Assembly (NCBI GenBank): GCA_903928015.1
Contig: CAIYPF010000143.1
Coordinates: 2,980 to 66,979 of the forward strand
Direction of reading: 5' to 3'
Length of the DNA: 64,000 nucleotides
From: an uncultured Gammaproteobacteria bacterium
GTDB taxonomy: Bacteria; Pseudomonadota; Gammaproteobacteria; Pseudomonadales; UBA5518
Shown: in pieces, positions 17,337 through 49,795 of the stretch
Layout of the letters: each line of letters begins with the position of its first letter
How positions within the stretch are numbered: position 1 is the stretch's first letter
Program-made: the position numbers and the translations under genes
Notes under the pieces: generated by a model
Database searches by the model: none
Told to the model about the DNA's origin: nothing
The model's input: the letters and a program-made list of their open reading frames with translations, nothing else

Positions 17337-19328
17337 TCAGAGCTCCCAGCCTTCCCGTTGCAGTTCGGGTGCAAGGATGTCGATCAGCGGCGCGAGTTGC
17401 TCGCCGTAGGTGCGCCATCGACCCAGCGCACTGTCGTAGAGCGGGAGCCGCACCTGCTCGGAACTCGCCGTGCGCACGGCTCTTTCGGTCTCGTGGAACC
17501 TGAGGCAGCGCTCGTCCCACGGCAGCCCGCAGAACTCCAGCAGCCGTCGGGTCTGGGCCTCCTGGTCCCGCACCATGTCCTCGTAGCGGATCTCGAGGAC
17601 CTGCCCCGGCAGAACCTCGCTCCAATGGGCCATCATGCGCCGGTACTCGAGGTAGAAATCAGCGAGCTCCTCGAGGTCGTAGGTGAAGCTCTGTCCCTGT
17701 GCAAAGTGCTGGCGATAGCAGCCAAGGCAACTGTCCAGCGGGTGGCGTCGGGCATCGATGATGCGGGCCTGCGGCAACATGAGGCGGATCAGGCCAACGG
17801 CGGCGAAATTGTTGGGCATCTTGTCGGTGAAGAAGGGTTTGCCGCTGCGGTGACGGCGCGTGCGCTCCAGGTAATCGCGGCCAAGCCCGGCAATCTCCGC
17901 ATCCGAGAGCCGCGCCAGCGCCTGCGGGTAGCGCTGCTCCGGGTGCCGCCGCGTGATCTCCGAGATGGCGCGCGCGATGTCCGGCAGCTCGGCGGTGCCC
18001 TCGACCAGCGGGTGGCTCGCGAGGATCTGCTCGAGCAGCGTGGATCCGGAGCGCGGCAGCCCGACGATGAAGATCGGCACCGGCTCGTTCTCGCGCCCGG
18101 TGGCGCGGCGTGCGGCGAGGAAGTCCGGCGTGAACACCGCACGGATGCGCTCGTGTTGCGACTGCGTGTCTACCGGATCAAAGGCAACACGCATGCGCTG
18201 GGTGGAGTTCGCTTCCTCGTAGAGCGAGAACGCCTCTTCATGACGACCTTCGTCCTCGCGCGATTTGGCCAGCGCAAAGCGGAAGTGCACCAGCGCGTCC
18301 TCGTCCAGCGTCGCATCGGCGGCACAGCGCTCCATGGTCGCGATCTCTTCCTGCGTGAAGCGGAAGGTCTTCAGGTTCGCGAGACTCCAGTAGACCTCGC
18401 CGAATTCCGGACGCAGCTTCAGCGCCTCGCGGTAGGCATCGATGCCTTCCTGCTGCCGGCCAAGCGTCTTCAGCAAGTGGCCCAGACCGATCCATGCACC
18501 GGGATTGTCCGGACGCAGACGGATGGACTCGTGGTAGGCGGCCACCGATTCGTCATAGCGGCGCGTGAGCGCGAGCATGCTCGCGTGGAGGTATTGCGCC
18601 AGCGGGTTGCGCGGACTGCGCGTCACGACCTCGGATGTGGACTCCACCGCCTGCTCGACCTTGTCGCGCTGCTTCAGCACCCGCGCGAGATCCAGCCTCG
18701 CATCGTCGAAATCCGGGGCGAGCGAAATCACGCGCCGCAACAGGCGCTCGGCCTCGGCGGGGCGCTCGGCCTCATCGGCCACGCGGGCGAGCATGCGGAG
18801 CGCATTCACGTCGCGCGGGCGCGCCTCAATCACGCGCCGGAGCAGCGGCTCGCTCTCGCGCATGCGTCCGGCACGCTGCTCGGATGCGGCCTGCAACAGC
18901 AGCCTGCCCGCGGGCCCTTCGTCGAATTCCCGCCCGAGGAGTGCGTCCGCTTCTTCTCCCTTGCCCTGCGCGACCAGAGCCTGCGCCAGGCGCCGGCGGG
19001 TAGCGACCGAGCCGGGGTCCAGATCCACGGCCTTCTGCAGGCTCTCCACCGCCTCGTCCACACGGCGAAGCTGCAGCAAGGCACGCCCACGCTCCTCCCA
19101 GGCTCGCGGATGTCCCGGCGCGATCTCCACCGCAAGATGCAGCGAGTCCAGAGCCTCGGAGGGCTCGCGCAGGGCCACGAGGCTGGCTCCGAGGAGTGCA
19201 AGAAGATCAGGGTCCCGCGGTGCCACGCCGAGCGCCTCGCGGCACAGCACGGCGGCAGCGGCTGCATCGCCCTCGCGAAGGCGATCCAGAGCTGCGCGAA
19301 AGGCAGTGACGGCGGAATCCGGTGGCAT
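17337..19328 (-). CDS. TPR-repeat protein with C-terminal sulfotransferase domain
   Basis: 663 aa. The N-terminal ~350 aa are TPR-like helical repeats. The C-terminal domain has the PAPS 5'-phosphosulfate-binding loop IFIVGLPRSGSTLLEQIL. Confidence 0.8.
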   Translation of the reverse strand: MPPDSAVTAFRAALDRLREGDAAAAAVLCREALGVAPRDPDLLALLGASLVALREPSEALDSLHLAVEIAPGHPRAWEERGRALLQLRRVDEAVESLQKAVDLDPGSVATRRRLAQALVAQGKGEEADALLGREFDEGPAGRLLLQAASEQRAGRMRESEPLLRRVIEARPRDVNALRMLARVADEAERPAEAERLLRRVISLAPDFDDARLDLARVLKQRDKVEQAVESTSEVVTRSPRNPLAQYLHASMLALTRRYDESVAAYHESIRLRPDNPGAWIGLGHLLKTLGRQQEGIDAYREALKLRPEFGEVYWSLANLKTFRFTQEEIATMERCAADATLDEDALVHFRFALAKSREDEGRHEEAFSLYEEANSTQRMRVAFDPVDTQSQHERIRAVFTPDFLAARRATGRENEPVPIFIVGLPRSGSTLLEQILASHPLVEGTAELPDIARAISEITRRHPEQRYPQALARLSDAEIAGLGRDYLERTRRHRSGKPFFTDKMPNNFAAVGLIRLMLPQARIIDARRHPLDSCLGCYRQHFAQGQSFTYDLEELADFYLEYRRMMAHWSEVLPGQVLEIRYEDMVRDQEAQTRRLLEFCGLPWDERCLRFHETERAVRTASSEQVRLPLYDSALGRWRTYGEQLAPLIDILAPELQREGWEL

Positions 19329-20828: not shown

Positions 20829-21386
20829 CTAGCGCTCGATACGCTCTGGCGGCACGTAGTCGAAGATGAAATTGATCCTGGCCTCGGCGCCCTTGTTCAT
20901 CACGCTGTGCGTGAGCAGGTTGTTGATCTCGTAGGCCTGCCCCAGCTCGAAGCGGTAGGGCCGGCCGTCGATCATGAAGCGCACCCGGCCGTTGGTGGTG
21001 ATGGGCACATGTATCCGGTGTCCGAAGGCAAACGAGGGGTGGCTGTCTCGGTGCGGCGTAATCACCTCACCTGGCAGCAGCTTGGCCGCCATCGCACGGA
21101 TGATGGTGCCGCCCGGAGGGTAGTGCCGCGCGAGAATGTCCTGCATGAGCGGCACGGCTGTGTCAGCGAGCAGGTCCCAGCCCGCCTCACGGCTCACGCT
21201 GATCGCGGGCCAGCCCGCCCCGTCGGTGAAGACCAGCACGACGGACTCCGTGCGCCGGTGCACGTCATAGTCTTTCTGGCGCCGCTGATCCTGCAGCCAG
21301 TCCCCGGCAGCAAGGCCGAGAATCGCCTGTCGCAGCGGCTCCACGTCCACTGCCCCGAGTTCGCGGATCGGAATGCCTATGTCCAT
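20829..21386 (-). CDS. Aspartyl/asparaginyl beta-hydroxylase-family (cupin, 2OG/Fe) protein
   Basis: 185 aa. Motifs PHRDSHPSFAFGHRIHVPITTNGRVRF and INFIFDY. Confidence 0.7.
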   Translation of the reverse strand: MDIGIPIRELGAVDVEPLRQAILGLAAGDWLQDQRRQKDYDVHRRTESVVLVFTDGAGWPAISVSREAGWDLLADTAVPLMQDILARHYPPGGTIIRAMAAKLLPGEVITPHRDSHPSFAFGHRIHVPITTNGRVRFMIDGRPYRFELGQAYEINNLLTHSVMNKGAEARINFIFDYVPPERIER

Positions 21387-24114: not shown

Positions 24115-25050
24115 TCAGGCTACGTGGAACTGCGCGGCCCAGCGGCGGAAGCGCGCCACCGGACCATCACCGTCGCAGAGCTGCGGGTGCTCGAGATAGA
24201 TCTTGTTCTCCCAGATCGGGATGTCGTCCGTGAGCTGGCGGTTCACTTCCTTCACGAAGGCCTGGCCGATGCGGTCGATGCGCGGATCACGCGCGGGGTT
24301 GCGATACCAGATGTGGTTGTGCTGCTCGGAGACGTCCGACTCTATGGGCACGTTGGTGGTAACCATGCACATCTCGGCAAGCGTGCGGTAGCGGACGATC
24401 GCATAACCGAATCCGTAGGCATCGGTGCCAAGCGTGCCCTGGACCGGCCCCTGGGAGCCAGGGAACTCCTGCGTGCTGCGCATCGTGAGCGTGGTGCCTT
24501 CGAGCAGGAACTCGTCGTATTCGGCCGGCCCGGGATGGTGGTGGATGGTCTGGAAGTGCGCGGCATCCGCGGTGTTCTCGGCCATTTCCTGCAGGCAGGT
24601 GCTGATGCGATGCCCCTGACTGAAGGGACCCACCCACTCGGGGTCGCTCGCCTCGGGCACCTCGGGAAGCGCATAACGCGGCGCGATGCCATCGGGGTGG
24701 TACCAGGCCATCAACACACCGTGGCGCTCCTGCACCGGGTAGGTGGGAAGACAGGCTTTCTCGTTGAGGCGTTTCGCGTAGTCGATCTCCGCGACCCGAC
24801 CCTCTGCATTGAAGCGCCAGTGGTGGAACGGGCACTCGACCAGATTGCCCTTCACACGCCCGCCCACGCCGATATTCGCGCCGAGGTGGGGGCAATAGGC
24901 GCTCTGCAGATGAGCCACGCCATCCTCTCCGCGCCAGAGGATCAGATCCCTGCCGAAGCAGCGCAGCGGCTTCAGCGCGCCGGGCGCAAGATCCGCGGCG
25001 TATCCCGCATGAAACCAGCCCCAGGGCACAGGAAAGGAATAACGGCTCAC
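24115..25050 (-). CDS. Rieske [2Fe-2S] oxygenase, KshA-like
   Basis: GTG 25050 is preceded by GGAGA and is preferred over the longer ORF start at 25167. Rieske ligands CPHLGANI...CPFHHWRF. Confidence 0.8.
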   Translation of the reverse strand: MSRYSFPVPWGWFHAGYAADLAPGALKPLRCFGRDLILWRGEDGVAHLQSAYCPHLGANIGVGGRVKGNLVECPFHHWRFNAEGRVAEIDYAKRLNEKACLPTYPVQERHGVLMAWYHPDGIAPRYALPEVPEASDPEWVGPFSQGHRISTCLQEMAENTADAAHFQTIHHHPGPAEYDEFLLEGTTLTMRSTQEFPGSQGPVQGTLGTDAYGFGYAIVRYRTLAEMCMVTTNVPIESDVSEQHNHIWYRNPARDPRIDRIGQAFVKEVNRQLTDDIPIWENKIYLEHPQLCDGDGPVARFRRWAAQFHVA

Positions 25051-25066
25051 GGGATGTCTCCTTGTC

Positions 25067-25468
25067 TCAACTGCGCGGGCGGAACACCGGCGCCATGAAA
25101 GCCGCATGTCCCCGCGGATGCAACTCGCGGAAGCACAGCTCGAGCGGCATGCCGCAGCGCAGGGCATTGAAGTCGCACTCGACGATCTGCGTCACCAGAC
25201 GCACGCCGGGCACGGCATCGAGTTCCACCAGCCCGGGTGCATAGATCGGTTCGAAGAGCGGATTGATCGGGCCGCGCACCACGCTGAACGCGTAGAGGCT
25301 CGCATCGCCTGCCACCTCTCTCCAGTCGTAGGCCGTGCCGTCTTCACGCGGATACCAGCATGCTTTGCCGGTGGCAGGATCGAACGGCAATACGAGCCGC
25401 TGCTCACGCGCAGCCGCCCAGAACGGAGCCGTGATCGCATTGGCCGACGCGGGACCGAAATCAGCCAT
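25067..25468 (-). CDS. DUF35 OB-fold protein (thiolase/aldolase partner)
   Basis: 133 aa with the typical DUF35 layout (ITAPFWAAAREQRLVL...; OB-fold tail). Sits directly downstream of a thiolase-like gene, with a 1-nt gap. Confidence 0.7.
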   Translation of the reverse strand: MADFGPASANAITAPFWAAAREQRLVLPFDPATGKACWYPREDGTAYDWREVAGDASLYAFSVVRGPINPLFEPIYAPGLVELDAVPGVRLVTQIVECDFNALRCGMPLELCFRELHPRGHAAFMAPVFRPRS

Positions 25469-25469
25469 C

Positions 25470-26720
25470 TCAGGCCCTCCTCAGGATGAGCGTTGCAGCT
25501 TCATCAGCGGTGAATCCACCGTAGATGCCGACGCGCGCGTCCTGCACCTGGTTGGCCGCCTCGCCCCGCAACTGACGCACCAGCTCCACCACGTGGGCGA
25601 TGCCGAGCACGTAGGCGTGCGACATCAGGCCGCCGTGCGTGTTGCAGGGAATGCCGCCCTGGCTTCGCGGACGATCGAAGTGAAGTCGCTTGTTCTGCAC
25701 GAAGGCACCGCCCTCCCCCTTCGCGCAGAAACCCAGGTCCTCGATCATCATCAGTGCCGTGATCGAGAAGCAGTCGTAGAGTTCAAGCACATCGATGTCG
25801 CGGGCGCTCATATCGGCCATGGCGTAGGCCCAGGGCGCGGCGAAGGTCTGCGGCGTCGCGCTCATCACGCCCTGCTGGCTGATGTAGGGCGCATTGGCAA
25901 TGATGCCGTGGCCGAGGCCCGCAAGCTCCACCACCGGATGCGGCATGTCGCGCGCCAGCTCCGGGGCACTCATCACCCAGGCGGCGGCGCCGTCCGAGAT
26001 CAGGCAGCAGTCTTCCACGCGCAGCGGATCCGTCAGCATGGGCTTGGCGAGGTATTGCTCGAGCGACAGCGTCTTGTGACGCATCACAGCGCCCGGATGG
26101 CCATTGGCGTGACGACGGAAGGCCACGGCGAGTTCGCCCAGCTGTTCTTGCGTGGTGCCGTACTCGTACATGTGCCGGCTCGCCTGCGTGGCCATGTAGA
26201 CGGGCTGCGGATACCAGCCATAGGGCAGCTCGTAGAAGGCTTTCATCGCCTCGCCGGCATGCCAGTCACCGGGCGTGCCGGTACCCGCGGCGCGACGGCT
26301 CGCCCAGTCCACCGAGAAGACGTTCACGATGTGGCGCGCCTTGCGCGAGCGCAGCGCCTCCGCGGCGTACTGCGTGCAGGTGGCGGCCCACACCATGCCG
26401 CCGCCTCGCTCGCTCAGCCACATCTCGTGCGAGGTGCCGAAGTGACGGTGGAAATCCTCCACGCGGATCTGGTCTGCCACATGTGGCGTGTACATCAGGC
26501 CGTCGATGTCGGAGGGCTTCAGGCCCGCATCGGCGATGGCATTGCCGATGGCCTCGAGCGCCATGTCCACGGCCGCGCGCCCGGACGGGCCGCTGAACGC
26601 CGACTCACCGACGCCGGTGATGGCGAGATCCCCGCTGATGTCCGCAATCCCGGCCGAGCGGCCCCAGTCGAAGCGCCCGGCGCGCTGCTGCAGTTGTTCA
26701 ATGCTCTGTCTGGCTGGCAT
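25470..26720 (-). CDS. Thiolase-like (SCP-x / lipid-transfer-protein type) enzyme
   Basis: 416-aa thiolase fold (DCCLISDGAAAWVM, NTHGGLMSHAYVLG). Pairs with the DUF35 gene as in Ltp-type systems. Confidence 0.75.
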   Translation of the reverse strand: MPARQSIEQLQQRAGRFDWGRSAGIADISGDLAITGVGESAFSGPSGRAAVDMALEAIGNAIADAGLKPSDIDGLMYTPHVADQIRVEDFHRHFGTSHEMWLSERGGGMVWAATCTQYAAEALRSRKARHIVNVFSVDWASRRAAGTGTPGDWHAGEAMKAFYELPYGWYPQPVYMATQASRHMYEYGTTQEQLGELAVAFRRHANGHPGAVMRHKTLSLEQYLAKPMLTDPLRVEDCCLISDGAAAWVMSAPELARDMPHPVVELAGLGHGIIANAPYISQQGVMSATPQTFAAPWAYAMADMSARDIDVLELYDCFSITALMMIEDLGFCAKGEGGAFVQNKRLHFDRPRSQGGIPCNTHGGLMSHAYVLGIAHVVELVRQLRGEAANQVQDARVGIYGGFTADEAATLILRRA

Positions 26721-26822
26721 GGACGGATTCCCCCCTTGCGGGGATCATCGCGGCCAGACCAATTGCAGTAAACGGTTTTGATGCGGAAACTGGGCCGCGT
26801 GAACTGATGGCAATCTCCCCGC

Positions 26823-26870
26823 CCCCGGCAACCCGGCAACCCGGCAACCCGGCAACCCGGCAACCCGGCA
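26823..26870. repeat. Octanucleotide tandem repeat (ACCCGGCA) x5 perfect, plus one flanking copy with one mismatch
   Basis: Read directly: perfect copies at 26831-38, 39-46, 47-54, 55-62 and 63-70, preceded by CCCCGGCA at 26823-30. Intergenic, between divergent genes starting at 26720 (-) and 26931 (+). Confidence 0.95.
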
Positions 26871-26930
26871 TCAATACATACCCCTGACGGGCCGGGGCGC
26901 ACGCACCGCAGCTTGAGGCATCAAAAGACC

Positions 26931-27989
26931 ATGCATGTACTGATCACCGGCGCGAGCGGGCTCGTTGGCGCGCATGCAGCGGGCGCGATCCTTCGGGACG
27001 GCAGCCACACCGTGCGCGTGCTTGCCCGGGATCCGCAGCGCGTGCTTTCGGCCATCGCCCCCTTGGGTGTCGAGTGCAACAGCATCGAGATCGCCACAGG
27101 GGACGTCACGGATGCGGCGCAGGTGGCCGAGGCCATGCGCGGGGTCGATGCCGTGATCCACGCCGCGGGCCTGTTTTCGCACGATCCTGCCGACACCGCG
27201 AAGATGCAGCTCAGCAATGTGCTTGGTACGCGTTGCGTGCTGGGAGCCGCCGTCGCTGCCGGCGCCGACCCGATCATCCATGTGTCGAGCTATCTCGCCT
27301 TGTTCCCGCCCCGCGGGGCCGTGCAGCGCGCCTCGGATCCCGTCACTGCCCCGCGCAGCGTCTACGCCCGCACCAAGGCCGAGGCGGAAAGCATCGCCCG
27401 CGAACTGCAGGAGAGCGGCGCGCCCGTCGTGACCGTGTACCCGGGCGCGATCCACGGCCCCGACGACCCCAGCTTCGGCGCGAGTCCCGCCTATCTGGCA
27501 GAGTCGCTGCGCAAGCGGAGCATGCTGGTGAACCGCGGCGGGCGCGGCTACAACGATGTGCGCGACCTTGCCCGGCTTCTGCTGCTCCTGCTGTCTCCGG
27601 GGCTTGGTCCGCGCAGGATGATGTGCGGCGGGCTCTACACAAGCGACAGCGATATCCACGCCCTGCTGTGCCAGCTGACGGGCAATGCGATCAGCGCGGT
27701 ACGCCTGCCGGGCTGGTTGCTGAGGGCGATGGGCCGGACGGGAGACATCGCTGCAGCGCTGACGGGAGGCACCGCGGCGCTCAGCTACGAGGCCGCATGC
27801 GTGCTCACACGCAGCGTGCCCTGCGACGACACCGCCGCACTGGCATTGCTTGGCCGGCCCTGGATGCCCATCGGGCAATCCCTGTGCGATCTGCTGGTCT
27901 GGATGCGTCGTGCCGGCCACCTCTCGGCAGAAGATGCGGGCCCCGCCATCTGCGCACTGGCGGCAGAAAACCGCACGGACGGACGATGA
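26931..27989 (+). CDS. NAD-dependent epimerase/dehydratase-family (extended SDR) protein
   Basis: ATG 26931 (MHVLITGASGLVGAHAAG), with TTG 26913 as an alternative. Contains YARTK (YxxxK). Its stop overlaps the next ATG (ATGA). Confidence 0.8.
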   Translation: MHVLITGASGLVGAHAAGAILRDGSHTVRVLARDPQRVLSAIAPLGVECNSIEIATGDVTDAAQVAEAMRGVDAVIHAAGLFSHDPADTAKMQLSNVLGTRCVLGAAVAAGADPIIHVSSYLALFPPRGAVQRASDPVTAPRSVYARTKAEAESIARELQESGAPVVTVYPGAIHGPDDPSFGASPAYLAESLRKRSMLVNRGGRGYNDVRDLARLLLLLLSPGLGPRRMMCGGLYTSDSDIHALLCQLTGNAISAVRLPGWLLRAMGRTGDIAAALTGGTAALSYEAACVLTRSVPCDDTAALALLGRPWMPIGQSLCDLLVWMRRAGHLSAEDAGPAICALAAENRTDGR

Positions 27990-28468
27990 ATCATCCCGCC
28001 GCTTCAGGCCGCCAGCGTCTCCGGATGACGGCCCTGCTGCTTGCAGGCGCGCTGCTCTGCGCTGCCTGCCCGGATAGCAAGGCGCCCGGCTCCGACATCA
28101 GCGCTGCGGTCAAAGAGCGCCGCGACAACTTCCGCCGCATGGGCGATGCGTACAAGGCCATCAAGGAAAGCATCGAGAGCGGCAAGCCCGACGCGGCGCT
28201 GGTCGTACGCAGCGCGAGGCTGATCCGCGACACCGGAGCGGGTCAGCCGGCGCTCTTCACCCCGGGCAGCGGAGCCGGTTCGGGTGCGAAAACCCGGGCG
28301 CGCGATGCGGTATGGACGGAGGCAGCGTTGTTCGCGCGCCGGCAGGACGAATTCCTTGCCACAAGCGACGCGCTGATCGCCGCCGCGCCCGCCGACATGA
28401 GCGAGGGCTACGAGGCGCTGACGCAGGCCTGCCTGGCGTGCCACGAGCATTTCCGCGAGCGCCGCTGA
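27986..28468 (+). CDS. Cytochrome c' (class II c-type cytochrome), exported
   Basis: Only the last 160 aa of ORF 27074-28468 look real. N-terminal signal MTALLLAGALLCAAC, a helical body, and a CLACH haem-binding motif near the C-terminus, as in cytochromes c'. Confidence 0.7.
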   Translation: MNHPAASGRQRLRMTALLLAGALLCAACPDSKAPGSDISAAVKERRDNFRRMGDAYKAIKESIESGKPDAALVVRSARLIRDTGAGQPALFTPGSGAGSGAKTRARDAVWTEAALFARRQDEFLATSDALIAAAPADMSEGYEALTQACLACHEHFRERR

Positions 28469-28476
28469 ACAACTGC

Positions 28477-29238
28477 CTACACGTAACGCACCGCACCACC
28501 GTCGATGCGGATGTTCTGGGCATTGATGAACCCCGCCCGCTCACCGCACAGGAAACACACCAGTTCTGCCACGTCTTCACGCGTGGCGATACGGCCGCAG
28601 GGATTGGGGAAATCCGTCGCCACGATGTGCTTTTCGATGCTGTTCCAGTCCTCGGGCAGTCCGCGGGCGCGAGCCCTGCGCCGGTAGGCCTCCTCCACCT
28701 GCTCGGTACGGATGTAACCGGGGGCGACGGTGTTCACCGTGATCCCCGTAGCTGCCAGTTCCTGCGCGAGGCTCACCGTGATGTTGGCGAGAGCACCCTT
28801 GGCTGCGTAATAGGCAGGCCGCTCAGCCACCGGTTGGTGCGAACCGATGGTGCCCAGATTCACCACCCGGCCCCAGCCCTTGCGCTTCATCGCGGGCACG
28901 CAGCCCTGGATCATGCGCACCGCGGAAAGCAGATTGATCTGGTACATCTCGAGCCACTTCGCCGTGTCGCTGTGCTCCCAGCCGTGCGCATCCGTGGTGC
29001 CGTAGTTGTTCACGAGGATGTCCACCTCGAGCCCCAAGGCCGCGATCTGCGCCAGTACCTGCGTGCAACCCTCTTCGGTGGCGACGTCGCCGTGCACGGC
29101 CAACCCCGCGGGAGCCGCCGAGTTCCCATGACGGATCACCGTAGCGCCCTCCGACGCCAGGGTTGCCGCGATGATCTCGCCGGTACGCCTGTCACTGCCC
29201 GTGACCAGCGCGGTCCTTCCCTTCAGCCCCATATCCAT
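28477..29238 (-). CDS. Short-chain dehydrogenase/reductase (SDR)
   Basis: ATG 29238 (MDMGLKGRTALVTGSDRRTGEI). Also YYAAK and NTVAPGYI motifs. Confidence 0.85.
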   Translation of the reverse strand: MDMGLKGRTALVTGSDRRTGEIIAATLASEGATVIRHGNSAAPAGLAVHGDVATEEGCTQVLAQIAALGLEVDILVNNYGTTDAHGWEHSDTAKWLEMYQINLLSAVRMIQGCVPAMKRKGWGRVVNLGTIGSHQPVAERPAYYAAKGALANITVSLAQELAATGITVNTVAPGYIRTEQVEEAYRRRARARGLPEDWNSIEKHIVATDFPNPCGRIATREDVAELVCFLCGERAGFINAQNIRIDGGAVRYV

Positions 29239-29359
29239 GAAACATTCCCCCGTCGTCGTGGCGCGGCCAGATAGTGCGCGGTATGCAAGGCGCGAACAGC
29301 GCAAGCACTGTCCCCGGCACCCACGCGATTATTCCATTCATCCGTCCGGAGAACCCAGC

Positions 29360-29740
29360 ATGAGCGAGAGCCTGCGCGACAAGGGCATCGAGATGTTCAA
29401 CACCGTCTACTGCGGAGACCTCCCGCAGCCACCGCCCCCGGGGCAGGACAAGTTCTTCGATTTCATGCTGGAGGGGGTCTTCGGCAAGCTCTGGGCCGAT
29501 ACCACGCTGTCCATGCGGGACCGCCGGCTCGTGCTGCTCGGCGCCATTGCCGCGCAAGGCGAGGACATGACCTGGACCATACAGGCGCGCTCGGCGATGA
29601 AGCGCGGCGAGCTGAACCAGCAGGAACTGGAGGAGATCATCATTTTCCTCACGCAGTACGTGGGCTACCCGCGCGCATCCAAAATGCGCATGGCGCTGAT
29701 CGGCCTGCTGGCGCAGCAAGCACAACAGAAGTCCACCTGA
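29360..29740 (+). CDS. Carboxymuconolactone-decarboxylase (CMD/AhpD-like) family protein
   Basis: ATG 29360 with GGAG 9 nt upstream. LSMRDRRLVLLGAIAAQG...ELEEIIIFLTQYVGYPRA is typical of CMD-family proteins. Confidence 0.7.
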   Translation: MSESLRDKGIEMFNTVYCGDLPQPPPPGQDKFFDFMLEGVFGKLWADTTLSMRDRRLVLLGAIAAQGEDMTWTIQARSAMKRGELNQQELEEIIIFLTQYVGYPRASKMRMALIGLLAQQAQQKST

Positions 29741-29753
29741 GGCGGCGCCGGAC

Positions 29754-30785
29754 ATGGATCAGCCGACACACTGGCAGCGCATCGAACTCACAGCCTTCGG
29801 CGGCCCCGGGATGCTGCGCGTGGTGGAAGAGACCACGCTGCCGCAGCCCGGCCCCGGACAGATCCGCGTGCGGGTGCTGGCTGCAGGCACGGGCTTCACC
29901 GACACCATCATCCGGCTGGGGCAGTATCCGGGCGTGAAGCAGAAACCGCCCTTCACGCCGGGCTATGACTGGTTCGGTGTGGTGGATGCACTGGGCACGG
30001 GTGTAACGGGCCTCGCCTTGGGCGATGCCGTGGCCGACATGCCGGTGATCGGCGGTTACACGCAATACCTTTGCGTCGACGCCGCGCGCGTGCAGCGCTG
30101 CCCGGCAGGGCTGGACCCTGCCGAGGCGGTGAGCATGATTCTTTCCTACACCACTGCCTGGCAGATGCTGAAACGTGAGTGCCGGCTCCAGCGCGGCGAC
30201 TGGATCCTGGTGCACGCCGCGGGCGGCGCCGTAGGAAGCGCGCTGCTCGATCTGGCGAAACACCTGGGGCTTCGCGTGATCGGTACGGCCTCTGCGGCAA
30301 AGCACCCCTTGCTCAAACGCTACGGCGCCGAGCCCATCGACTATCGCTCGGAGGATTTCGTCTCGCGCACGCTGCAGATATCCGGCGGCGGCGTGAAGGC
30401 CGTCTTCGACACCATCGGCGGTGCCAACTGGAGCCGCTCCTACCGCTGCCTTGCGCGCGGCGGAACGCTGGTCGGCTTCGGCGCGCTGCAGGCGAAGGAC
30501 GGCACGGAGAGCATTCCCTCGCTCCTGTGGGGCTTCGCGAAACTGCTCGCGCTGTGGAAGCTGCTGCCCGACGGCAAGCACAGCTGCTTCTACAACATCC
30601 AGACGCGTCGCGAGGCCAAGCCCGCTGAATTCCATGAGGATCTGGGAGACCTCATGCAGATGCTCGCAGCAGACCAACTCCGCCCGGCCGTGGCAGAGCG
30701 CGTGCCGCTGGCGCAGGCGGCCGAGGTGCACCGTCGCATCGATGCCGCCGGGATAGCCGGGAAGGTTGTGCTGATCTGCGAGTGA
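29754..30785 (+). CDS. Medium-chain (zinc-type/quinone-oxidoreductase-like) dehydrogenase/reductase
   Basis: 343 aa. GQIRVRVLAAGTGFTD..., PFTPGYDWFGVV, and cofactor motif ILVHAAGGAVGSALLDLAK. Confidence 0.85.
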   Translation: MDQPTHWQRIELTAFGGPGMLRVVEETTLPQPGPGQIRVRVLAAGTGFTDTIIRLGQYPGVKQKPPFTPGYDWFGVVDALGTGVTGLALGDAVADMPVIGGYTQYLCVDAARVQRCPAGLDPAEAVSMILSYTTAWQMLKRECRLQRGDWILVHAAGGAVGSALLDLAKHLGLRVIGTASAAKHPLLKRYGAEPIDYRSEDFVSRTLQISGGGVKAVFDTIGGANWSRSYRCLARGGTLVGFGALQAKDGTESIPSLLWGFAKLLALWKLLPDGKHSCFYNIQTRREAKPAEFHEDLGDLMQMLAADQLRPAVAERVPLAQAAEVHRRIDAAGIAGKVVLICE

Positions 30786-30836
30786 ACCCCGCACCCGGGT
30801 GCTGCCGCAAAACGCGCGGTGACGCCCGGGACACAC

Positions 30837-33800
30837 TCAGCCCCCCACGCCACCCACGCTGCGCTCGACGAAGGCCACTACCGACTCCTTGCTGAAACCC
30901 CAGACCTCGCCCGAAATCATGCGACTGGAACGAATCAGGTCAGCAAGCGGCACAGCGCCGCCACCGCCACTCGATGCCCCATAGACCTGCTTGACGGTGC
31001 TGGCCGCCGCCGCGCGCCAATCCAGCGGGACATAGCTGCGCTGGCTGTTGTGCCGATCGGCATAGGTGGTGTCGACGGGCACGAACGTCGGCTTCGGTTG
31101 GTAGTTCTTTTCACTTGAAAAGGAGTTGGCCTGGTACAGGCCAGTAAAACCCCGACGGATGTCTTCGTCACTGCGCACCGTGATGGAAGCAGCTGCAGCC
31201 GCAACAGCGACGATGGGCAACGCAAGAAAACCAAGCGGGATAACCGCCAGTGCGGCCGCGCTGAGACCCGCAACTGCGCCAACTTCTTTCAGTCGATCAG
31301 AACTTCGGGGAGTGAAAACACTATTCAACGCCGGGGCGCTCTTGCCCAAAACAGCCAGACCGAGACCGGTCGTGGATATCGCGTCAAGGCCTAGCCGCTT
31401 CCGCCGACCCGATGAGCTGTTCCCTCTACCGGCGCTGGCAGAAAACTGCCCCTGATCCTGCCTTTGCACGCCGGGCGCGAAGTTGATTCCGAAGTTGAAA
31501 ACTGAGTCGAGATTATCGACGACGAGCGCCCCATACCTGACAGCCTTACCAGAGCCTTCATTGGCCGCCGCCTTGCCTAAGCGCTCAAGCGGGTCGAAGA
31601 CTTTGCCCAGCCCACGCTCAAGCGAATCGACTGCTTTGGCAGACCTGCTCAGAGGCTTCCGAACGTCGTCGGCGATTCCCCCTGTGGGGAGGATATCGGC
31701 ACCGAACGCCACATCCAGAGCGTTCTGGAACCCGCCATCCGACGCCATGACTGAATCAGAGGAGATTACATCGTCTATACCAGCCGAAGAACCTGACGCT
31801 CTACGGACACTGCTCGAAAGGTCATCTGACAACTCCGTGAGATCATCCACTTTCCCTGCAATCTTCTTGGCATTGAGAGCAACCTCGTCGGCCTCACCGG
31901 CCACCGCCTTCGCTGAGCCCACCACATCACCCAATGCACCCAAAAGCCCACCACCAAACGCAACAGCAAGCATGTTCGGGTTGACGATACGGCCGTCGTT
32001 CTGGATTGCCTGATTGGCTGCCTCGCCGGCGACTTCCAGCGCGGTTTGCGCCACAACGTTAGCCAACTTGAGAAGGGAGGTCGCCTTGCCGGCAACGGCA
32101 ACCGCCTGACCGATGCCGGCAGCAATACCGCCAATAGCACCGGCGACCACATCCGCCGCAACGGCCTTCCAGTCGAACTCTTTCTGCAATTCGAAGCCGA
32201 CCAGAATTCCCTGCGTAATGGCCGAAGCAGCAAAGGCGATGGCTGCCGCCACAACTGTGGTTGCTACAACCGCTCCGATAACCGCTCCCGCAGTCAAAGC
32301 CGTGCCCGCTGCAGCGACCGGAGCGAGTGCGCCCGCCGAAACAACCGTAAGAAGAGCCGCGGCAATTGCCACGACCACAATCAGGATGATGGCAAACGCC
32401 AGTTTGACCTTGGCGCAAGGATCCGGCGCCGGCTGGGGAATGGCAGGAAGTTTTGAGCCGATCAACGTGCTCTCGTTGTAGAGCGCATGGGTACGGCTTG
32501 TGCGGTACGCGTCCTGCGCAGTGACCGGAATCACCAGACGTGAACCTGCTTTCAGCGCAGATGTGCCGCCAAGGCCGTTGGCCTCGGCAATCGCGAACCA
32601 GAGCTCTGGCGATCCGTAGTACTGCCCCGCAATGGACTCCAGCGTATCCCCGGCCTGCACCGTGTGCTGGGAGATCGACGGACCATCCGGGAACGCGGGA
32701 TCGAAATTCAAGCCTGTGCCGATGGTGTTGTGCTCGACCGCATAGTCGCCGTTGGCGGACTGCAGGGGGCGCCCGTCACCGTCCAGATCCGGAGTACGCA
32801 AACCAGAGGTAAGCAGCATCTTTGCCGTCTCGGCGACTGCCCCGACCACACCGGTCGCGATATTCACCGTTCCATCAATAATGAAATTACCTACGTAGGG
32901 ACCCTGTTGGTCTGCATAGTCGCCGACCGGATTCCCCAATGCGTAGAGATAGAAATATCGCTTTACGGTGATATAGCCCGCTGTCCCGTTGTCAGGGCGG
33001 GTTTCGTACCTGAGTAGCAGATGGCCCTCGTTGTCGTAGGAGTAGCTGATGTCACGACCGAACTCCAGCGGGTCGCTGCTACCACGACTGTTCACAAGGA
33101 GACGGCCGTTTGAATCGTAGATATAGGACGCGGTTGCGCTTCCCGTCGGCGCCGCGACGGACGTTGCGCGATTCTTGCCGTAGAAATCGTAGAAATAGCC
33201 GTAGGTGGTAATACTCCCGTCAGTGGTTATCCGCGTTTGCGAAACACGGCCGGACCGGTCGGCAGTGGTTTCGGTGGTCTGAACCGTATGTGACTGCGTG
33301 CACTTGACGGTTTTATAGACCCGGTAACTGGCGTCGTAGGAGTTAGTCTCGGTATCCCACTGGTACCACGTGTTGGTCTGATACTTCAGCCCCGGCCCCC
33401 AGTAAAAATGCTCGCGCTGCGTGATATTGCCAGCCTTGTCGTAGACCCAGAGCGATTGGGAAATTTGCCACAGCGTGCTGTAGCCCGTGCCATAGCCCTG
33501 TGCCGCTGCTTGCGCGCCGGTCAGCGTGGGGTACTGGTTCCAGGAACCGTCTGCGACTGAACTCGGCGGCTTCGATTTGAACAGACGGGTAAACGTTACC
33601 GCACCATTCTTGTTGTAAGAGTAGAACCGCACATAGCCGCTCTCCGTCACCTCTTCCTTGAAGCGGTTGCCTGCATAGTCGTAAGAGAAATTGAATGTGA
33701 TGTCGTCTGTGGTGTCTTGCGTTGCCTTCCAGGCATCGTCATTTTTCAGCTTCGTCAGTCGATTGGCTGCGTCATATTCGTACGTTGTTACTTTTTTCCC

Positions 33801-36800
33801 GGCAGCGCTTGTCTGAGTGATTTGCTTGAGGTTTCCGTCCTTGTAATAGAAGTATTCCGCAGAAATGGAAATATCTTGTGTGCCTGCCTTTACTGAGGGG
33901 AAATGCGTCCAGGACTTGAGGACTCCGTTCGCGTAGTAGCTGTAATTGACGGCTCGCTCGAGCAACCAACCCCTATCCCAGGATTTGTAGTTGAAGCGCT
34001 CGTACACACGGTTGCCGGCCACGTCATATCTGTACTCCGTATACGACTCGTTTCTCCCCTGTAGCATCCGGGTGATGGCGCTGTGGTATCCGGTGTCATC
34101 AATGCGGATGACACGTCCGGCGTTGTCGTAAGCGGTCTTGATATCCTTGCCCCTGATCACCGTTTTTTTGCCGGTAGCGGGGATGTTTCCGTCGTAGTGC
34201 GCAGGCCCGGTCTCCGACACACGGCGCCCGAATTTGTCATATCCGTAAACGGTGATGGTCTCGACGGGCACACTGCCGCTGGCGGTATTCACCAGGCGCT
34301 TCTGACTGCCAAGGAATACGTCGACGCCACCGGTACCGGCACTCGAGAACGGGATCGCCGCTCCGCCGACCGTCGCCGACAGCGTGAATGTGCCGGTCGC
34401 ACTCACACTTTTCACGAAATAAGACTGTCCAGCCACGAGACCCGTCGGCAGCGTGCCCACCCCGCTGTCCGGTGTTCCGCCCAGACTTCTGAAAAAAAGC
34501 TCCTGCCCGACGTCGAAAACGGGACGCACGGAGAAGGTGCCGCTACCGACAGACGCGGATGTCAGCAAGGCCCCACCGGGCGTCTCGGAAATTCGGAAGC
34601 TGTCATAACGGCCATCGGAGCTATTGAAGATGTTCGCAACGTAATACGTTCTCCCCGCCACGATACCCGTTGGCAAGGTCCCGCCGCTGCTCACGCTGAA
34701 TGTCACTTTCTGACCCTCGGTCAGCCCGTGTGAGGACACATTCCAACTCAGGAAACCGCCAAAACCCGGCTGAGCCGCATCAGTGATGGATGCCGTCGTG
34801 GTCTTGGAGCAGTTGAGCTCCAGAAGACCGTTCACGCCGCTGGCCGTCGCGTTTTCCGTGACCGGCACGATCTGGCTGGAGGTGTAGAAGTCATTGCCAA
34901 GCACCAGCGGCACGCTCACGCTCAGCAGGCGCCCGAAGGGGCCGTACTCGAAACACTGCGTTCGCCCTTCGGCATCGGTGACCGTGGACTTGTTGCCGTA
35001 GGTGTCGTATCGGGTCTGCTGCACTATCGCGCTGCAAACCAGAAAAATCCCAGAGCCTTGGCCATTGGCTCCGAAGCTGATCTCCGACCCATCGGGCGAA
35101 GCGGAGATCGTAAAGGTGTTGGTCGTGACGGTCTTGATGTAATAGGCCTTACCGGCCACAAGCCCCGCGGGCAGAGTGCCTGCCGTCGAGAACGAAATCA
35201 GCTGCCCTGTCTTAAACCCGTGCCCGGTCCTGGTTAACGTCAGAACGGTGGTGGCGCTCGTCTTTGTGTTGGCGGTTACGGCCGGCCACGTCGCGGGTAG
35301 CTTGTCGAAACTGTACTCGGCGATAACGCGCCCTTGTTTGTCGTAGTCACGCCCGAAGAAGTTGCCGTTGGCGTCTTTGATAACGATCTGGTTGTCGCGG
35401 TGGTCGCACCGGTATTGCGTGGTGTTTCCCTCGCCATCGGTGGAGGTCACCATCCGGCCGCGCTGGTCGTAGGTGCTCGCTGAGGAGGTTGGCGTAACGG
35501 TGAGGGTGGCGGTAGGGTACGCAGCCCCGAGGGACAGCGCGGCCCCGCCGGGCGTCAGCGCAAGAGAGAACCGGTCCTTGTCTGCAACCCTGACAACATA
35601 GTAGGTCGTCCCCGCTACGAGATTTGCTGGCAGAGTCCCGGAGCTGCTCGCGCCGAATATCACCGCCTGCCCTTCGGACAGACCGTGATTCAAAAAGTAG
35701 AGAGTCAAGGAGTCTGACCACACACCGACTCTGCTTGAGCCCTTGGCGGTGCCGGTGCGACGACCGAAGGCATCGTAGCCGTAGCTCTCGGTCGTGGTGC
35801 TTTCGAGGCCCAGGAAGTAGCTGCTGATCAGGCGGTTCGCATTCCCACCTGAATAGGCATACACGAAGACACGGGTGTGCCCCTCACCATCAATCGTCTG
35901 GATACGATTGCCCAGACGGTCGTAGCTGTGAACGGTGATGGCGCCGAGGGCATCGGTTTCGCTGACCAGATTTCCCGCACCGTCACGGACGAACAGTCGG
36001 GCTTGGGACGCGAGGTTACCCGGATCCCGGATGCTGCACTCGCGCCCGGCATAGTCATAGCCCCATACGGTGAGTGCCCCTTTGGCCCCCCCTCCAAGGA
36101 CCGCAGCAAAAGGACCCAACTCCTCGGTTTTGCGCCCGAGTTTGTCAAAGCGGGCATAGCTTGTGATCGGGGAGGCATTTGTTCGGTCCAGGCCCCTCAG
36201 CGTTGTGACCACGGCGTTGCCGAGTCTGTCCACCGCGAATTCACGCCACAAGCCCTCTTCCTCGTTGGAGGCTGTCTTCATCCCCATATCGTTGTATTCG
36301 GTCTCGATGAAGTACCTCGCCTGCTTGCGCGGGACCCCTAGCCGGGCGAGCACTGTGACTGTGACTTGCAAGTTCGGATTCCGCGTTTTGGAGCATTTCA
36401 GCTCTCTCGACCAGGACAACTTGCCAGTCTGGAGATTCATCACCATGACGCGGAAATAAAACGTGCTGCCGTCCGGCAGAGTGTTGATCGGGATGCTGCC
36501 CGATGTTGCTGTTCCAGCGGGGGTTGCGGAAGCGTAGGAACCCTTGTCGCCGGGATTCAGCATGGATTCAACGTTGAAGGACTCCAGTTGCGAAGTGGCC
36601 CCCCATACGATCCAGGATCTGAGATCACCCGATGTCTGGCTTGCCGGATAAGTCCATGAGACATTCGCCGCGATCCCGGAACTGTAGCCGGCAATATCAA
36701 GGTTGGAGGGATAGGGCAGCGGATAGCCAGCGTCCTCCATGTAGGAGCGCACAACCTGACCACGCACGTTGTATTCCTGGAACGCGGCGGTTCCTGTCGG

Positions 36801-45509: not shown

Positions 45510-47213
45510 TCAGATCCGCGATGCGGTGCAGGCGTGGTTCGCCGCCACGAAGCCAAAGGTCATCGACGGGCCCAGGGTCGCACCTGCTCCGGGGTAATAC
45601 CGACCCATCGCCGAGGCCGAGCAGTTGCCGATCGCATAGAGCCCCGGAATCACCTTGCCGTCGGTATCGAGTGCGCAAGCATCGGCATTCGTGAGGATCC
45701 CGCCCTTTGTTCCGATATCCCCGGGATGTACCTGCACCGCGTAGAACGGCGCTTCGGCGATGCTCGCCAGACACGGATTCGGGCCCAAGCGCACATCGCC
45801 GTACATCAGGTCGTAGCTGTTCTCGCCGCGGTGGAAGTCTTCGTCCGTGCCGCTCTGCGCAAAACCGTTGAAGCGCGCCACCGTGGCCGACAGCGCTTGC
45901 GCATCCAGACCGAGCTTTGCGGCCAGGGCCTGCAAGGTAGGCGCGCTCTGCAGGAACTGCTTGCGCACGCGAGCGGGTTGCAGCCAATCGAGGTGCATGC
46001 CGCCTGGCAGCAGGGGCCCGAAGGGATAGTTGCGCCGGTAGCGTGCGTCGAAGATCGCCCAGGCAGGAAGGTTGGGCGTGCCGCCATCATCTGCCGTGTA
46101 CATCGCCTGCACCGCCGTGGTGTAAGCCACGGACTCGTTGAAGAACCTGCGCGCCGCACGGTTCACCATGATGCAGCCCGGCATGGAGCGCTCGGTGAAG
46201 AGCATGCGTGCGCGGTCTTCGCCCTCCATCACGATGGTCGGCCCCCACCAGGCCTCGTCCATCAGGTGCAGCGCGGCGCCGATGCGCTCGGCGGCGAGGT
46301 GCAGATCGCCCGTGTTGGTGGGGCTGGCAGCAGACCAGGTGCTCTGCGTGGGTGCCGGCAAAAAGCGCTCGCGCATCGCCTGGCTGTGCTCGAAGCCTCC
46401 GGTGCCGACGATCACACCCTTGCGGGCCATGAGGCGGAACTGCTGCCCGCCGTTCTCGGCCACCACGCCGGTCACGCGCTCTCCCTCCCGGATCAGTTCA
46501 CGCACGGGAGTGGACAGGCGCAAGGGAACTCCGCGATCGAGCAATGAGCGACGCAGCCGGGCCATCAGCGCATTGCCCATGGTGAGCCGGCGCGAGCGTT
46601 TGGAGCGCAGGCGCCAGCCGATGTCGCTCGCATATTCCAGCGCGAGCTTGGCAACCACCTTCAACCAACCCGGCGCCTTGCTGAGCAGCACCGCTCCCTC
46701 GAGGTTGGTGTAGCCCATCAGCCCCATCACCGTGGTCTGCACGTGCGAGGGCTGCATATCAAGGAACACATCGCCAAGAGCCCGTGCGTCATAGGCCAAC
46801 GGGTCGATGGATCGCCCGCCGGGGCGAGCGCCCGGGAGTTCCTGATAGTAGTCCGCGTAGTGGAGCATCGCCTCGTAGCGCACGTGGCTGTTTTCTTCGA
46901 GGAAACGCAGCATGCGCGGCCCCTGATCCACGAAGGCTTCCACCACGGCGGGGTCAACATCGCCGTCGGTGAGGGCGCGCAGGTAACGGAGCGCATCCTC
47001 GCGGTTGTCCTCGACACCCCCTGCAAGCATCAGGTGGTTAAGCGGAATCCACAGGCCTCCGCCGGAACTTGCCGATGTGCCGCCAAAGCGGGCGGCTTTC
47101 TCGAGGACGACCACGCTGTCGCCGTTTGCGGCTGCGGTGAGCGCAGCGGTGAGGGCGCCGGCACCGGAGCCCACAACGATGATGTCGACGGTCTCGGAGA
47201 TGGCGTCAGACAT
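45510..47213 (-). CDS. FAD-dependent 3-oxosteroid 1-dehydrogenase (KstD)-like flavoprotein
   Basis: ATG 47213 (MSDAISETVDIIVVGSGAGALTAALTAAANGDSVVVLEKAARFGGTSASSGGGLWIP), which is the characteristic KstD-family N-terminus. Confidence 0.8.
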   Translation of the reverse strand: MSDAISETVDIIVVGSGAGALTAALTAAANGDSVVVLEKAARFGGTSASSGGGLWIPLNHLMLAGGVEDNREDALRYLRALTDGDVDPAVVEAFVDQGPRMLRFLEENSHVRYEAMLHYADYYQELPGARPGGRSIDPLAYDARALGDVFLDMQPSHVQTTVMGLMGYTNLEGAVLLSKAPGWLKVVAKLALEYASDIGWRLRSKRSRRLTMGNALMARLRRSLLDRGVPLRLSTPVRELIREGERVTGVVAENGGQQFRLMARKGVIVGTGGFEHSQAMRERFLPAPTQSTWSAASPTNTGDLHLAAERIGAALHLMDEAWWGPTIVMEGEDRARMLFTERSMPGCIMVNRAARRFFNESVAYTTAVQAMYTADDGGTPNLPAWAIFDARYRRNYPFGPLLPGGMHLDWLQPARVRKQFLQSAPTLQALAAKLGLDAQALSATVARFNGFAQSGTDEDFHRGENSYDLMYGDVRLGPNPCLASIAEAPFYAVQVHPGDIGTKGGILTNADACALDTDGKVIPGLYAIGNCSASAMGRYYPGAGATLGPSMTFGFVAANHACTASRI

Positions 47214-47360
47214 GGGATACCCCGGAAAAGCGGTGAGGAACACGCGGGAAAGCCGCGACGCCGGTACGGTAGAGAACGGCAAAACAATTTACAAGGATGG
47301 ATTTTCTGGCCTATAAGCGCCCTGCCGTGCCGCGTGGGCCCGGCACCACGGAGACACGCC

Positions 47361-48821: not shown

Positions 48822-48853
48822 GCCGATAGGGACAGTCACAGGAGAAACAAGGC

Positions 48854-49702: not shown

Positions 49703-49795
49703 GGCTCCTTAACACACTGTCACGCGCGCCTCGTTGTAGCGCAGGAACACCGGGCCCTAGACTCCGGTGGCCGCCACTTCGCCCCGGACATATCC

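Follow-up and report, generated by a model that had tools for sequence, protein, structure and literature searches.

A LysM and hydrophobic-helix module as the putative pre-toxin junction of giant YD-repeat proteins

How does a giant protein built of YD repeats end when the cleavage signature of rearrangement hotspot (Rhs) proteins is missing? The question is raised by a 64,000-nucleotide stretch of DNA from an uncultured member of the Gammaproteobacteria (contig CAIYPF010000143.1, positions 2,980 to 66,979), which we analyzed as a whole and call the window. Its minus strand carries a YD/Rhs-repeat open reading frame (ORF) of 4,754 aa (30837..45101), the last part of which (30837-32915) comprises aa 4063-4754 and the stop codon. 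In this last part, the initial annotation of the sequence had noticed a LysM domain and a cluster of hydrophobic helices. Here we describe these elements as parts of one conserved module, which in relatives stands ahead of exchangeable tails with diverse toxin domains, and we propose that it may act as a device for docking and translocation.

Rhs/YD proteins are understood as a cocoon that is closed by an aspartyl autoprotease, and as being delivered by way of a type VI secretion system (T6SS), by Tc or by Sec-dependent routes. In the window protein, Pfam detects 35 stretches of RHS_repeat (PF05593, E 1.3e-261), and NCBIfam detects 29 stretches of YD_repeat (TIGR01643) together with a partial match to RHS_core. 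The N-terminal match to DUF6531 remains below threshold (22.8 bits versus 24.1). The repeats end at around aa 4062 with a last YD-like element, RYFYLYALGNPVGDY (32916..32960, minus strand, aa 4048-4062), which aligns with the family consensus '...G...G..G' closing the repeat region. What follows is not the expected closure. The Rhs-associated core TIGR03696 gives no match at E<=0.1 in the window protein, and a regular-expression scan of the whole protein for PxxxxDPxG and DPxG[LWIVMF] returns zero occurrences. This confirms the initial annotation, which had failed to find the canonical core-end signature by eye and had suggested aligning homologs in search of a conserved cleavage motif. None of 166 family members has a DPxG motif followed by a hydrophobic residue within 400 aa upstream of the module, and the loss of the Rhs autoprotease is therefore a trait of the family.

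The elements listed in the initial annotation, namely RYFYLYALGNPVGDY, LysM, the hydrophobic helices, AGAIGGIAAGIGQAVAVAG and a Ser/Gly/Asp/Ala-rich region, are all found where they had been placed. A lineage-specific linker (32682..32915, minus strand as all features of the gene, aa 4063-4140) leads from the repeats to LysM; other members lack it or have a variable version, whereas it is identical in a full-length orthologue of 4,485 aa on the metagenome scaffold L005, which has the same N-terminus and an intact frame. The LysM domain (32526..32666, aa 4146-4192) matches PF01476 with an E value of 2.6e-7 and 30.9 bits against a cut-off of 20.9, and Pfam searches at E<=10 with the last 754, 487 and 287 aa of the protein return LysM alone, with no domain in the last 487 or 287 aa. 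A post-LysM connector (32415..32525, aa 4193-4229) with the family consensus 'T..pYdP....Gdt.Pt...P.P..C' ends in Cys4229 and is followed by a hydrophobic helical hairpin (32193..32405, aa 4233-4303), where long helices are predicted at aa 4228-4264 and 4272-4302. Amphipathic glycine-zipper helices close the module (31920..32192, aa 4304-4394), with the zipper AGAIGGIAAGIGQAVAVAG at 4320-4338 and a glycine-zipper helix predicted at aa 4311-4336. The family motif TQG.lvGf.LQ.eFdWk.VA falls at aa 4296-4315, where the window protein reads TQGILVGFELQKEFDWKAVA, and a second, degenerate copy of this Q-motif, ANQAIQNDGRIVNPNMLAVA, lies in the zipper region. In the family, the motif carried repeatedly by these helices has the form (S/T)QG.G.atG.Q..F.W..VA. 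Kyte-Doolittle means over 19 residues rise to 3.24 in aa 4225-4269, with more peaks through 4305 and additional ones at aa 4313-4337, 4377-4395 and 4606-4644, and stretches free of D, E, K and R extend over 70 residues at 4234-4303 and over 36 residues at 4607-4642.

In an AlphaFold2 model of the module, built on an alignment of 64 sequences, LysM adopts a strand-helix-helix-strand arrangement with a predicted local confidence (pLDDT) above 90, and the central part forms long helices with pLDDT of 75-88. By both sequence and Foldseek, the closest solved relatives of this LysM are those of contractile-injection-system baseplates of Streptomyces, Algoriphagus and Anabaena. Only LysM is matched by Foldseek; the helical part of the model resembles no solved pore-forming domain or other fold in the PDB, and matches of the module to MscS, all with E>4, were set aside as chance. 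Compared with the L005 orthologue, the linker and LysM show four synonymous and no nonsynonymous changes, and the ratio of nonsynonymous to synonymous substitution rates (Ka/Ks) is 0.20 for aa 4201-4394, which cover the connector, the hairpin and the helices. In this comparison with one close orthologue, the module is under purifying selection. Cys4229 (codon 32415-32417) is the sole cysteine of the window module and lies after the P.P motif, directly before the first hydrophobic helix. The same column holds a cysteine in 155 of the 166 modules, with a mean of 0.96 cysteines per module. It could be a site of processing, acylation or disulfide formation; the known motifs that we considered (lipobox, HINT) do not fit its surroundings.

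We scored a profile of the approximately 265-aa module (A1, 267 positions) against 1.84 billion protein cluster representatives (clusters at 50% identity), of which 1,766 match at E<=1e-30. Among the 150 matches listed, 141 span the profile from position ~2-9 to at least 185, that is from two-thirds of it to all, and the other nine are N-terminally cut fragments or P0009, a member with many LysM stretches. Many of the matching proteins are 3,000-7,200 aa long and contain YD repeats. The whole LysM-plus-helix arrangement is kept in the 166 collected relatives, where the median distance from the end of the module to the C-terminus is 451 aa (360 aa in the window protein). An initial word-indexed search with the 692-aa segment had returned seven relatives. 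In all of them, the YD repeats end and are followed in turn by LysM, by a connector rich in Pro that ends in Cys, by hydrophobic helices and by a motif of the form QG.G.atG.Q..F.W..VA, after which the sequences diverge. LysM is the only Pfam family common to 54 members, in 51 of which it lies directly beside the helices, and Pfam and NCBIfam together cover only this part of the module.

The module is also widespread across genomes. A scan of one genome per species yielded at least 525 loci confirmed by tblastn, in Alpha-, Beta- and Gammaproteobacteria and in Myxococcota. Carriers include Halieaceae, Luminiphilus, Woeseiaceae, Sphingomonadales, many Burkholderiales, Chitinimonas and Rhodocyclales. 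Among the genomes, Halieaceae bacterium GM1-29 gives the best matches, at 55% identity, with two giants that stand in tandem. A contig of 3.2 kb binned with a Methanobacteriota archaeon (L010, WTIV01000064.1) encodes a module 53% identical to that of the window together with the terminal domain described below; it is most likely a proteobacterial contaminant of the bin. We found no description of the module, or of its linkage to secretion genes, in the searchable literature, where coverage is mostly open-access. The undescribed end-module postulated in the initial annotation is real and conserved, but it is far from a one-off given the number of clusters and loci.

Polymorphic toxin systems are defined by a constant body or junction, swapped toxin tails, downstream immunity genes and orphan cassettes; in the 2012 census of these systems, LysM is only one of several adhesion domains, and neither such a junction nor a link between RHS and flagellar genes is described (PMC3482391). 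In the relatives of the window protein, the module is followed by an exchangeable tail of ~300-600 aa with diverse known toxin domains. The tails of 54 short members match Endonuclea_NS_2, Ntox50, TNT, Lipase_3, VgrG3-like_C, WHH, Phage_lysozyme2, Ntox46, Tox-REase-7, Colicin-DNase, EndoU and Tox-URI2. The giants of Niveibacterium end in Ntox22, for which they are named at NCBI, PT-HINT follows the module in P0026, and two relatives have weak matches to DUF637; Phage_tail_X, eCIS_core and VgrG3-like_C are each matched in single members. Putative immunity genes accompany these tails: the stop codon of P0031 lies within an overlapping CdiI_5 gene and that of P0004 within an overlapping ankyrin-repeat gene. 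In a crude scan, 83 of the 96 module copies whose frame reaches a stop have a same-strand ORF of 60-600 aa starting between about -40 and +150 nt from it, a count in which some of the copies are broken and some of the ORFs are other genes, for example the TPR1 homologues of L023 and L042. At L085, L070, L073, L061 and L067, cassettes of module and tail stand in tandem, two or three at a time. Because of the varied toxin tails, the immunity-like downstream ORFs and the tandem cassettes, the family can be classed as one of polymorphic toxins, with the module as its constant pre-toxin junction.

How such proteins leave the cell is a separate problem. The giants share an N-terminal motif, MVAIVsGnsLGL...YVNAATGNLV...RTYNS, and have no signal peptide. 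The window protein begins with MTILIGGAPTGLLDSS..., which fits a P0052-like variant of the motif and contains no Sec signal. Neither PAAR nor a VgrG-binding domain nor a signal peptide is found at this N-terminus, where Pfam reports only the sub-threshold DUF6531, and ten family N-termini have no Pfam match of any kind at E<=10. A likeness of the family N-terminus (MVAIVSGNSLGLNLSSL...) to that of the flagellar cap protein FliD, seen by eye, was dropped, as the same search with ten N-termini found no FliD_N. The initial annotation had called the combination of LysM with a signal-less giant a topology puzzle, and the answer is probably to be found beside the relatives, in genes for a flagellar-type type III secretion system (T3SS) and for cytoplasmic tetratricopeptide-repeat (TPR) proteins.

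Of the six giants with both flanks visible, five lie within 10 kb of T3SS or basal-body genes; TPR or T3SS genes accompany all six. At L006, FlgD, FlgE, FliM/N, FliO, FliP and a LuxR-type gene are followed by two TPR genes and the giant; at L089, the order is FliH, FliI, FlgD, FlgE, FliM/N, FliP, a FliA-type sigma factor, TPR and then the giant. Downstream of the two tandem giants of L004 lie two TPR genes, a sigma factor, FliP and FliN, and directly downstream of the giant of L090 lie FlgF/G, FlgH, FlgI, FliE, FliF and FliI. L091 has a TPR gene upstream and FliQ/R, FlhB/A and FlgF/G/A/H downstream, and L087 has a TPR gene alone near the giant. More broadly, tblastn detects flagellar-type, TPR or other cluster-associated ORFs at 16 of 80 genome loci in Alpha-, Beta- and Gammaproteobacteria, where mostly the downstream 10 kb alone was visible and where two of the 16 loci count solely through small unnamed cluster ORFs. 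Flagellar-type T3SS or hook-basal-body genes, together with TPR genes, recur within 10 kb of the giants at the loci L001, L004, L006, L021, L033, L038, L040, L048, L053, L054, L068, L089, L090 and L091.

Two families of TPR proteins recur at these sites; they are homologous between loci and lack signal peptides. Since we estimate that a flagellar regulon takes up ~1-2% of a genome, the linkage between giants and flagellar genes is far above chance, with the reservation that related genomes are non-independent samples. By comparison, no VgrG, PAAR, Hcp or extracellular contractile injection system (eCIS) genes are annotated at the 12 loci with gene tables, where the flagellar-type T3SS recurs. 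No CdiB partner is present in the neighborhoods examined, and the annotated ones contain no Tc genes either. The linkage suggests a route by which the signal-less giants could be exported.

The reading that we favor, and in which our confidence is evenly balanced, is that aa ~4140-4754 form the family-typical end of giant polymorphic toxins, with the module as a built-in device for docking and translocation. Many tails of the family are nucleases or NADases that act in the cytoplasm, and would therefore need to cross a membrane. The module is the only constant element beside the tails, and its architecture recalls translocation and pore domains. The signal-less giant would be exported with its N-terminus first, in relatives probably via the linked flagellar-type T3SS, and the small cytoplasmic TPR proteins would act as chaperones that shield the hydrophobic helices. 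After contact, LysM would hold the C-terminal end at peptidoglycan, and the hairpin and zipper helices would insert into a membrane, through which the tail would be carried or released. We consider it possible, though clearly short of probable, that the whole amounts to a widespread interbacterial weapon, in which giants are exported through a dedicated flagellum-derived hook-basal-body T3SS with TPR chaperones and the module is a self-contained translocon that stands in for the autoprotease of classical Rhs systems and also for their T6SS spike. The initial annotation had left the choice between a tethered surface or periplasmic giant and a delivered, membrane-inserting (pore-forming) tip. 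The family context, with its toxin tails, immunity-like ORFs and tandem cassettes, favors delivery over a static surface anchor, but the helices look like a device for translocation or a junction, so that the module would be a translocation domain and not the toxin itself.

Several observations weigh against this reading, in the family and in the window copy. It is from sequence and gene neighborhood that we deduce the binding to peptidoglycan, the insertion into membranes, the translocation and the export by a T3SS. LysM is nearest to baseplate LysM and may be a protein adaptor, so that its binding to peptidoglycan is not assured. The first helix is uncomfortably hydrophobic, much more so than would suit a protein that has to avoid the producer's own membrane. 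The TPR proteins score 69 bits against the LcrH/SycD model, below its cut-off of 104.8, and the flagellar genes could belong to the organisms' motility clusters. In the window, tblastn finds no homologues of the T3SS genes, of the TPR genes or of DUF6065 within the 64 kb; the only TPR match is a generic one, to a TPR-sulfotransferase gene (17337-19328). No immunity-like ORF lies downstream of the window giant, and upstream there is no small ORF of note. Motif and profile searches of the window protein find neither a canonical DPxGL site nor a known toxin domain, and no toxin domain is recognized in the tail by Pfam at E<=10 or by comparing a profile of the terminal domain with Pfam. The window copy departs from the toxin-immunity pattern of the family, and its toxin logic is borrowed from the relatives.

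The tail of the window copy has three parts. The first (31287..31919, aa 4395-4605) is a variable, low-complexity region rich in Ser, Gly, Asp and Ala, with a Ka/Ks of 0.65 relative to L005 that indicates relaxed constraint; at aa ~4425, L005 has a 17-aa tandem duplication relative to the window copy. The second is the hydrophobic segment identified by its Kyte-Doolittle values (31170..31286, aa 4606-4644). It had been annotated as another hydrophobic helix and is indeed present, but it is not conserved: P0052 lacks it, and in the ~95%-identical L005 orthologue a deletion of 35 aa (aa 4597-4631; window 31176-31283) removes about the first two-thirds of the run. The third lies in what had been described as a ~110-aa tail. 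This tail exists, but it is not anonymous, as its last ~85 aa (30840..31094, aa ~4670-4754) are a subfamily-conserved terminal domain with the consensus TYADxHxxQ..L.W..vAa.T...(30)...S.RM.SGQV.gF...svvaFaE.SVGGVGG. Ka/Ks is 0.21 for the interval that contains the domain (4601-4754, with 123 aligned codons at aa 4632-4754).

Relatives keep the terminal domain at 25-39% identity to the window copy. They are P0052, both Halieaceae giants, a gammaproteobacterial metagenome-assembled genome (MAG) from Erken, two giants of Myxococcota MAGs and the archaeon-binned contig. The domain is conserved within a subfamily centered on Halieaceae and Myxococcota. BLAST of the tail against the collected family members recovers P0008 (80% identity) and P0052. 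The word-indexed search with the tail alone gives no match, which reflects a limit of the method, and a homologue search with the terminal domain returns five short fragments. Compared with PDB and Pfam, the profile of the domain yields only noise, and the AlphaFold2 model of the domain has a pLDDT of 40, too low for use. Two giants with a window-type terminal domain are directly followed by a gene for a DUF6065 protein (L006 25745-26551 and L009 8305-9114), which is 268-269 aa long, shows 56% identity from one locus to the other and is a candidate partner or immunity protein; among the remaining relatives with this domain, the downstream gene is inconsistent.

Next on the 3' side of the window giant comes a gene for a zinc-type alcohol dehydrogenase, in convergent orientation, that ends 51 bp from the giant's stop codon, and no terminator or promoter pattern is present at the 3' end of the giant. 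A minus-strand ORF at 29649-30836, beginning directly behind the stop codon of the giant, was considered as an immunity gene and rejected as spurious, being antisense to the alcohol dehydrogenase gene, which is well supported by Pfam and by GC content at third codon positions (GC3). Genes for steroid and lipid catabolism flank the giant on both sides (24115-29740 and 45510-50974), among them a KshA-like Rieske oxygenase, KstD-like FAD-binding_2 enzymes, a thiolase, acyl-CoA dehydrogenases and short-chain dehydrogenases/reductases, and the giant is lower in GC than these flanks. The L005 orthologue has other neighbors, namely a Rieske ring-hydroxylating oxygenase and HalD, and because of this difference we conclude that the giant gene is mobile relative to its flanks. 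One gene of the PF05118 Asp/Asn beta-hydroxylase family lies in the window ~10 kb from the giant (20829-21386), beside a fatty-acid hydroxylase gene and the TPR-sulfotransferase gene, and at least six such genes lie just downstream of the P0010 giant (L089 29179-37439). The presence of this family near both giants may be a coincidence.

Composition and divergence change along the giant gene. Its first ~2,300 codons have a GC3 of 0.80-0.88, which drops to ~0.60 at aa 4200-4650, and the synonymous divergence (Ks) from L005 is 0.28 over aa 1-1000 but 0.05 over aa 2001-4060. These two gradients suggest a recent exchange of the 3' half of the gene. At ~34400-35600 of the window (aa ~3170-3570), the YD array is broken by at least three, perhaps four, repeats of ~60 aa with the form G(Q/H).v.F....GtLP.GlvAG..YYV....t..F.ls.tpGG..i.f. 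A weak E1_FCCH-like Pfam match lies within this region (aa 3284-3334), and the insert is probably a small beta-barrel domain. Other inserts are found in relatives (Big_3_5, He_PIG and HemolysinCabind).

Among the other explanations that we weighed, the one that fares best would leave the module in the producing cell. The helices would lodge in the inner membrane or in the export gate, LysM would bind the cell's own peptidoglycan, the YD body would lie outside, and the tail would wait in the cytoplasm until contact triggers its release, in analogy to CdiA, whose secretion undergoes a programmed arrest, or to a teneurin-like surface protein with a membrane anchor. The first helix, with its Kyte-Doolittle value of 3.24 and the uncharged run of 70 residues, is hydrophobic enough for spontaneous integration, and the adjacency of LysM and helices in 51 of 54 members is what an envelope tether would show. 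The immunity-like ORFs that we inspected lack signal peptides, and cytoplasmic immunity is sensible if the tail stays in the producer; also, PT-HINT behind the module of P0026 fits a toxin that is cut from an anchored stalk. However, a protein with no signal peptide would keep its 4,100-aa N-terminal part and LysM in the cytoplasm unless a dedicated exporter is used, and it is not established that the helices of a chain exported N-to-C by a T3SS channel can leave it laterally for the membrane. The same data fit a delivered translocator equally well, and overall we judge retention in the producer doubtful.

Alternatively, the helix cluster could itself be the weapon: a glycine-zipper pore former, similar to colicins or to the C-terminal part of Tse5, concentrated at the envelope by LysM and, in the window protein, the sole toxic activity. 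Hydrophobic pore-forming Rhs tips are known, with Tse5 as an example. The glycine zipper and the hydrophobic hairpin flanked by amphipathic helices are compatible with such a role, as is the window subfamily, which has no recognizable toxin domain and mostly no adjacent immunity-like ORF. Set against this, the module stays constant while the enzymatic toxins of the tails are many and unrelated, and each of them has a downstream ORF of its own. A pore former shared by the family should come with a conserved immunity protein, but we see none; in Foldseek, moreover, the helical part is unlike any solved pore-forming domain. We regard a toxic role of the helices as improbable.

A role of LysM as a loading adaptor, which would mount the toxin on the spike or baseplate of a contractile injection system (T6SS or eCIS), is very improbable. 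Its appeal comes from the best solved relatives of this LysM, which are baseplate proteins of such systems, from the T6SS loci in which LysM was shown to bridge VgrG and effector (PMC10673891), and from the matches to Phage_tail_X, eCIS_core and VgrG3-like_C in single members. Yet the 12 loci with gene tables have no annotated VgrG, PAAR, Hcp or eCIS genes, and the published LysM adaptors are N-terminal or encoded separately, whereas here LysM has a giant YD body on one side and membrane helices on the other. Finally, we give hardly any credence to the possibility that the window tail is a decaying, non-functional toxin end left by the loss of an immunity gene, as could be read from the missing immunity gene, the convergent gene ending 51 bp from the stop codon and the low-complexity mid-tail with its Ka/Ks of 0.65, indels relative to L005 and low GC3, because the frame is intact over 14.3 kb here and also in L005, LysM, the helix module and the terminal domain are under purifying selection, and that domain is kept at 25-39% identity in other gammaproteobacterial genomes and in Myxococcota.

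The definition of the module has consequences beyond the window. It is a handle to annotate, as polymorphic toxins, thousands of giants and orphan cassettes that are now called 'hypothetical', 'LysM' or 'YD repeat', and it raises the question of how enzymatic toxins cross membranes without any of the known entry devices. The repeated linkage of the giants with TPR genes and genes of a flagellar-type T3SS offers a testable hypothesis for the exit of signal-less proteins of 4,000-7,000 aa. If this linkage is functional, the flagellar export machine would have a new role in antagonism between bacteria.

Compared with known systems, the module resembles, in architecture only, the T domain of diphtheria toxin, the pore domains of colicins and the C-terminal part of Tse5, all of which have a buried hydrophobic hairpin amid amphipathic helices beside a catalytic cargo; searches with Pfam and with Foldseek against PDB detect no match of the module to translocation or pore domains in sequence or fold. 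The hydrophobic translocators of T3SSs (YopB, IpaB and SipB, with the class II TPR chaperones LcrH/SycD and IpgC) offer another parallel, since they too have a hydrophobic hairpin, and small cytoplasmic TPR genes and export genes are adjacent in our relatives. The differences are equally clear: no sequence homology is detected, the apparatus is of the flagellar type (FlgE, FlgH/I, FliA-type sigma factor) and not of the injectisome type, the substrate would be a YD protein of 4,000-7,000 aa, and the window has no T3SS or TPR genes. Like the T6SS LysM adaptor and the gpX-like baseplate LysM (PMC10673891), the LysM of the module is tied to toxin delivery and not to a cell-wall enzyme. Unlike them, it lies inside the protein, with a YD body before it and membrane helices behind it, and the annotated neighborhoods contain no vgrG or contractile-injection genes.

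Further parallels are found among the large polymorphic toxins. With CdiA, which they resemble in logic but not by homology, the giants share a repeat body of giant size, a constant junction with swapped toxin-immunity modules, and nucleases that need to cross the inner membrane of the target; a CdiI_5 gene beside one relative and weak DUF637 matches in two others point in the same direction. They differ from CdiA because two-partner secretion (TPS) domains, filamentous haemagglutinin (FHA) repeats and the VENN motif are all absent from the Pfam and NCBIfam matches of the window protein, because no CdiB is seen, and because the junction is hydrophobic, whereas CdiA has a soluble entry domain that hijacks membrane proteins of the target. 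With canonical Rhs and TcB-TcC cocoons (E. coli RhsA, P. aeruginosa Tse5 and Photorhabdus TcC), they share long RHS/YD arrays and a weak N-terminal region similar to DUF6531 and, at the family level, swapped C-terminal toxins, immunity-like ORFs directly downstream and orphan cassettes. In contrast to these cocoons, they have a repeat region four to six times the length of a single cocoon, no PAAR, VgrG or TcA partner in view, and, instead of the Rhs-associated core and its PxxxxDPxGL aspartyl autoprotease, a junction made of LysM and hydrophobic helices. The LysM-helix module takes the place that is held by PxxxxDPxGL in Rhs proteins and by VENN in CdiA.

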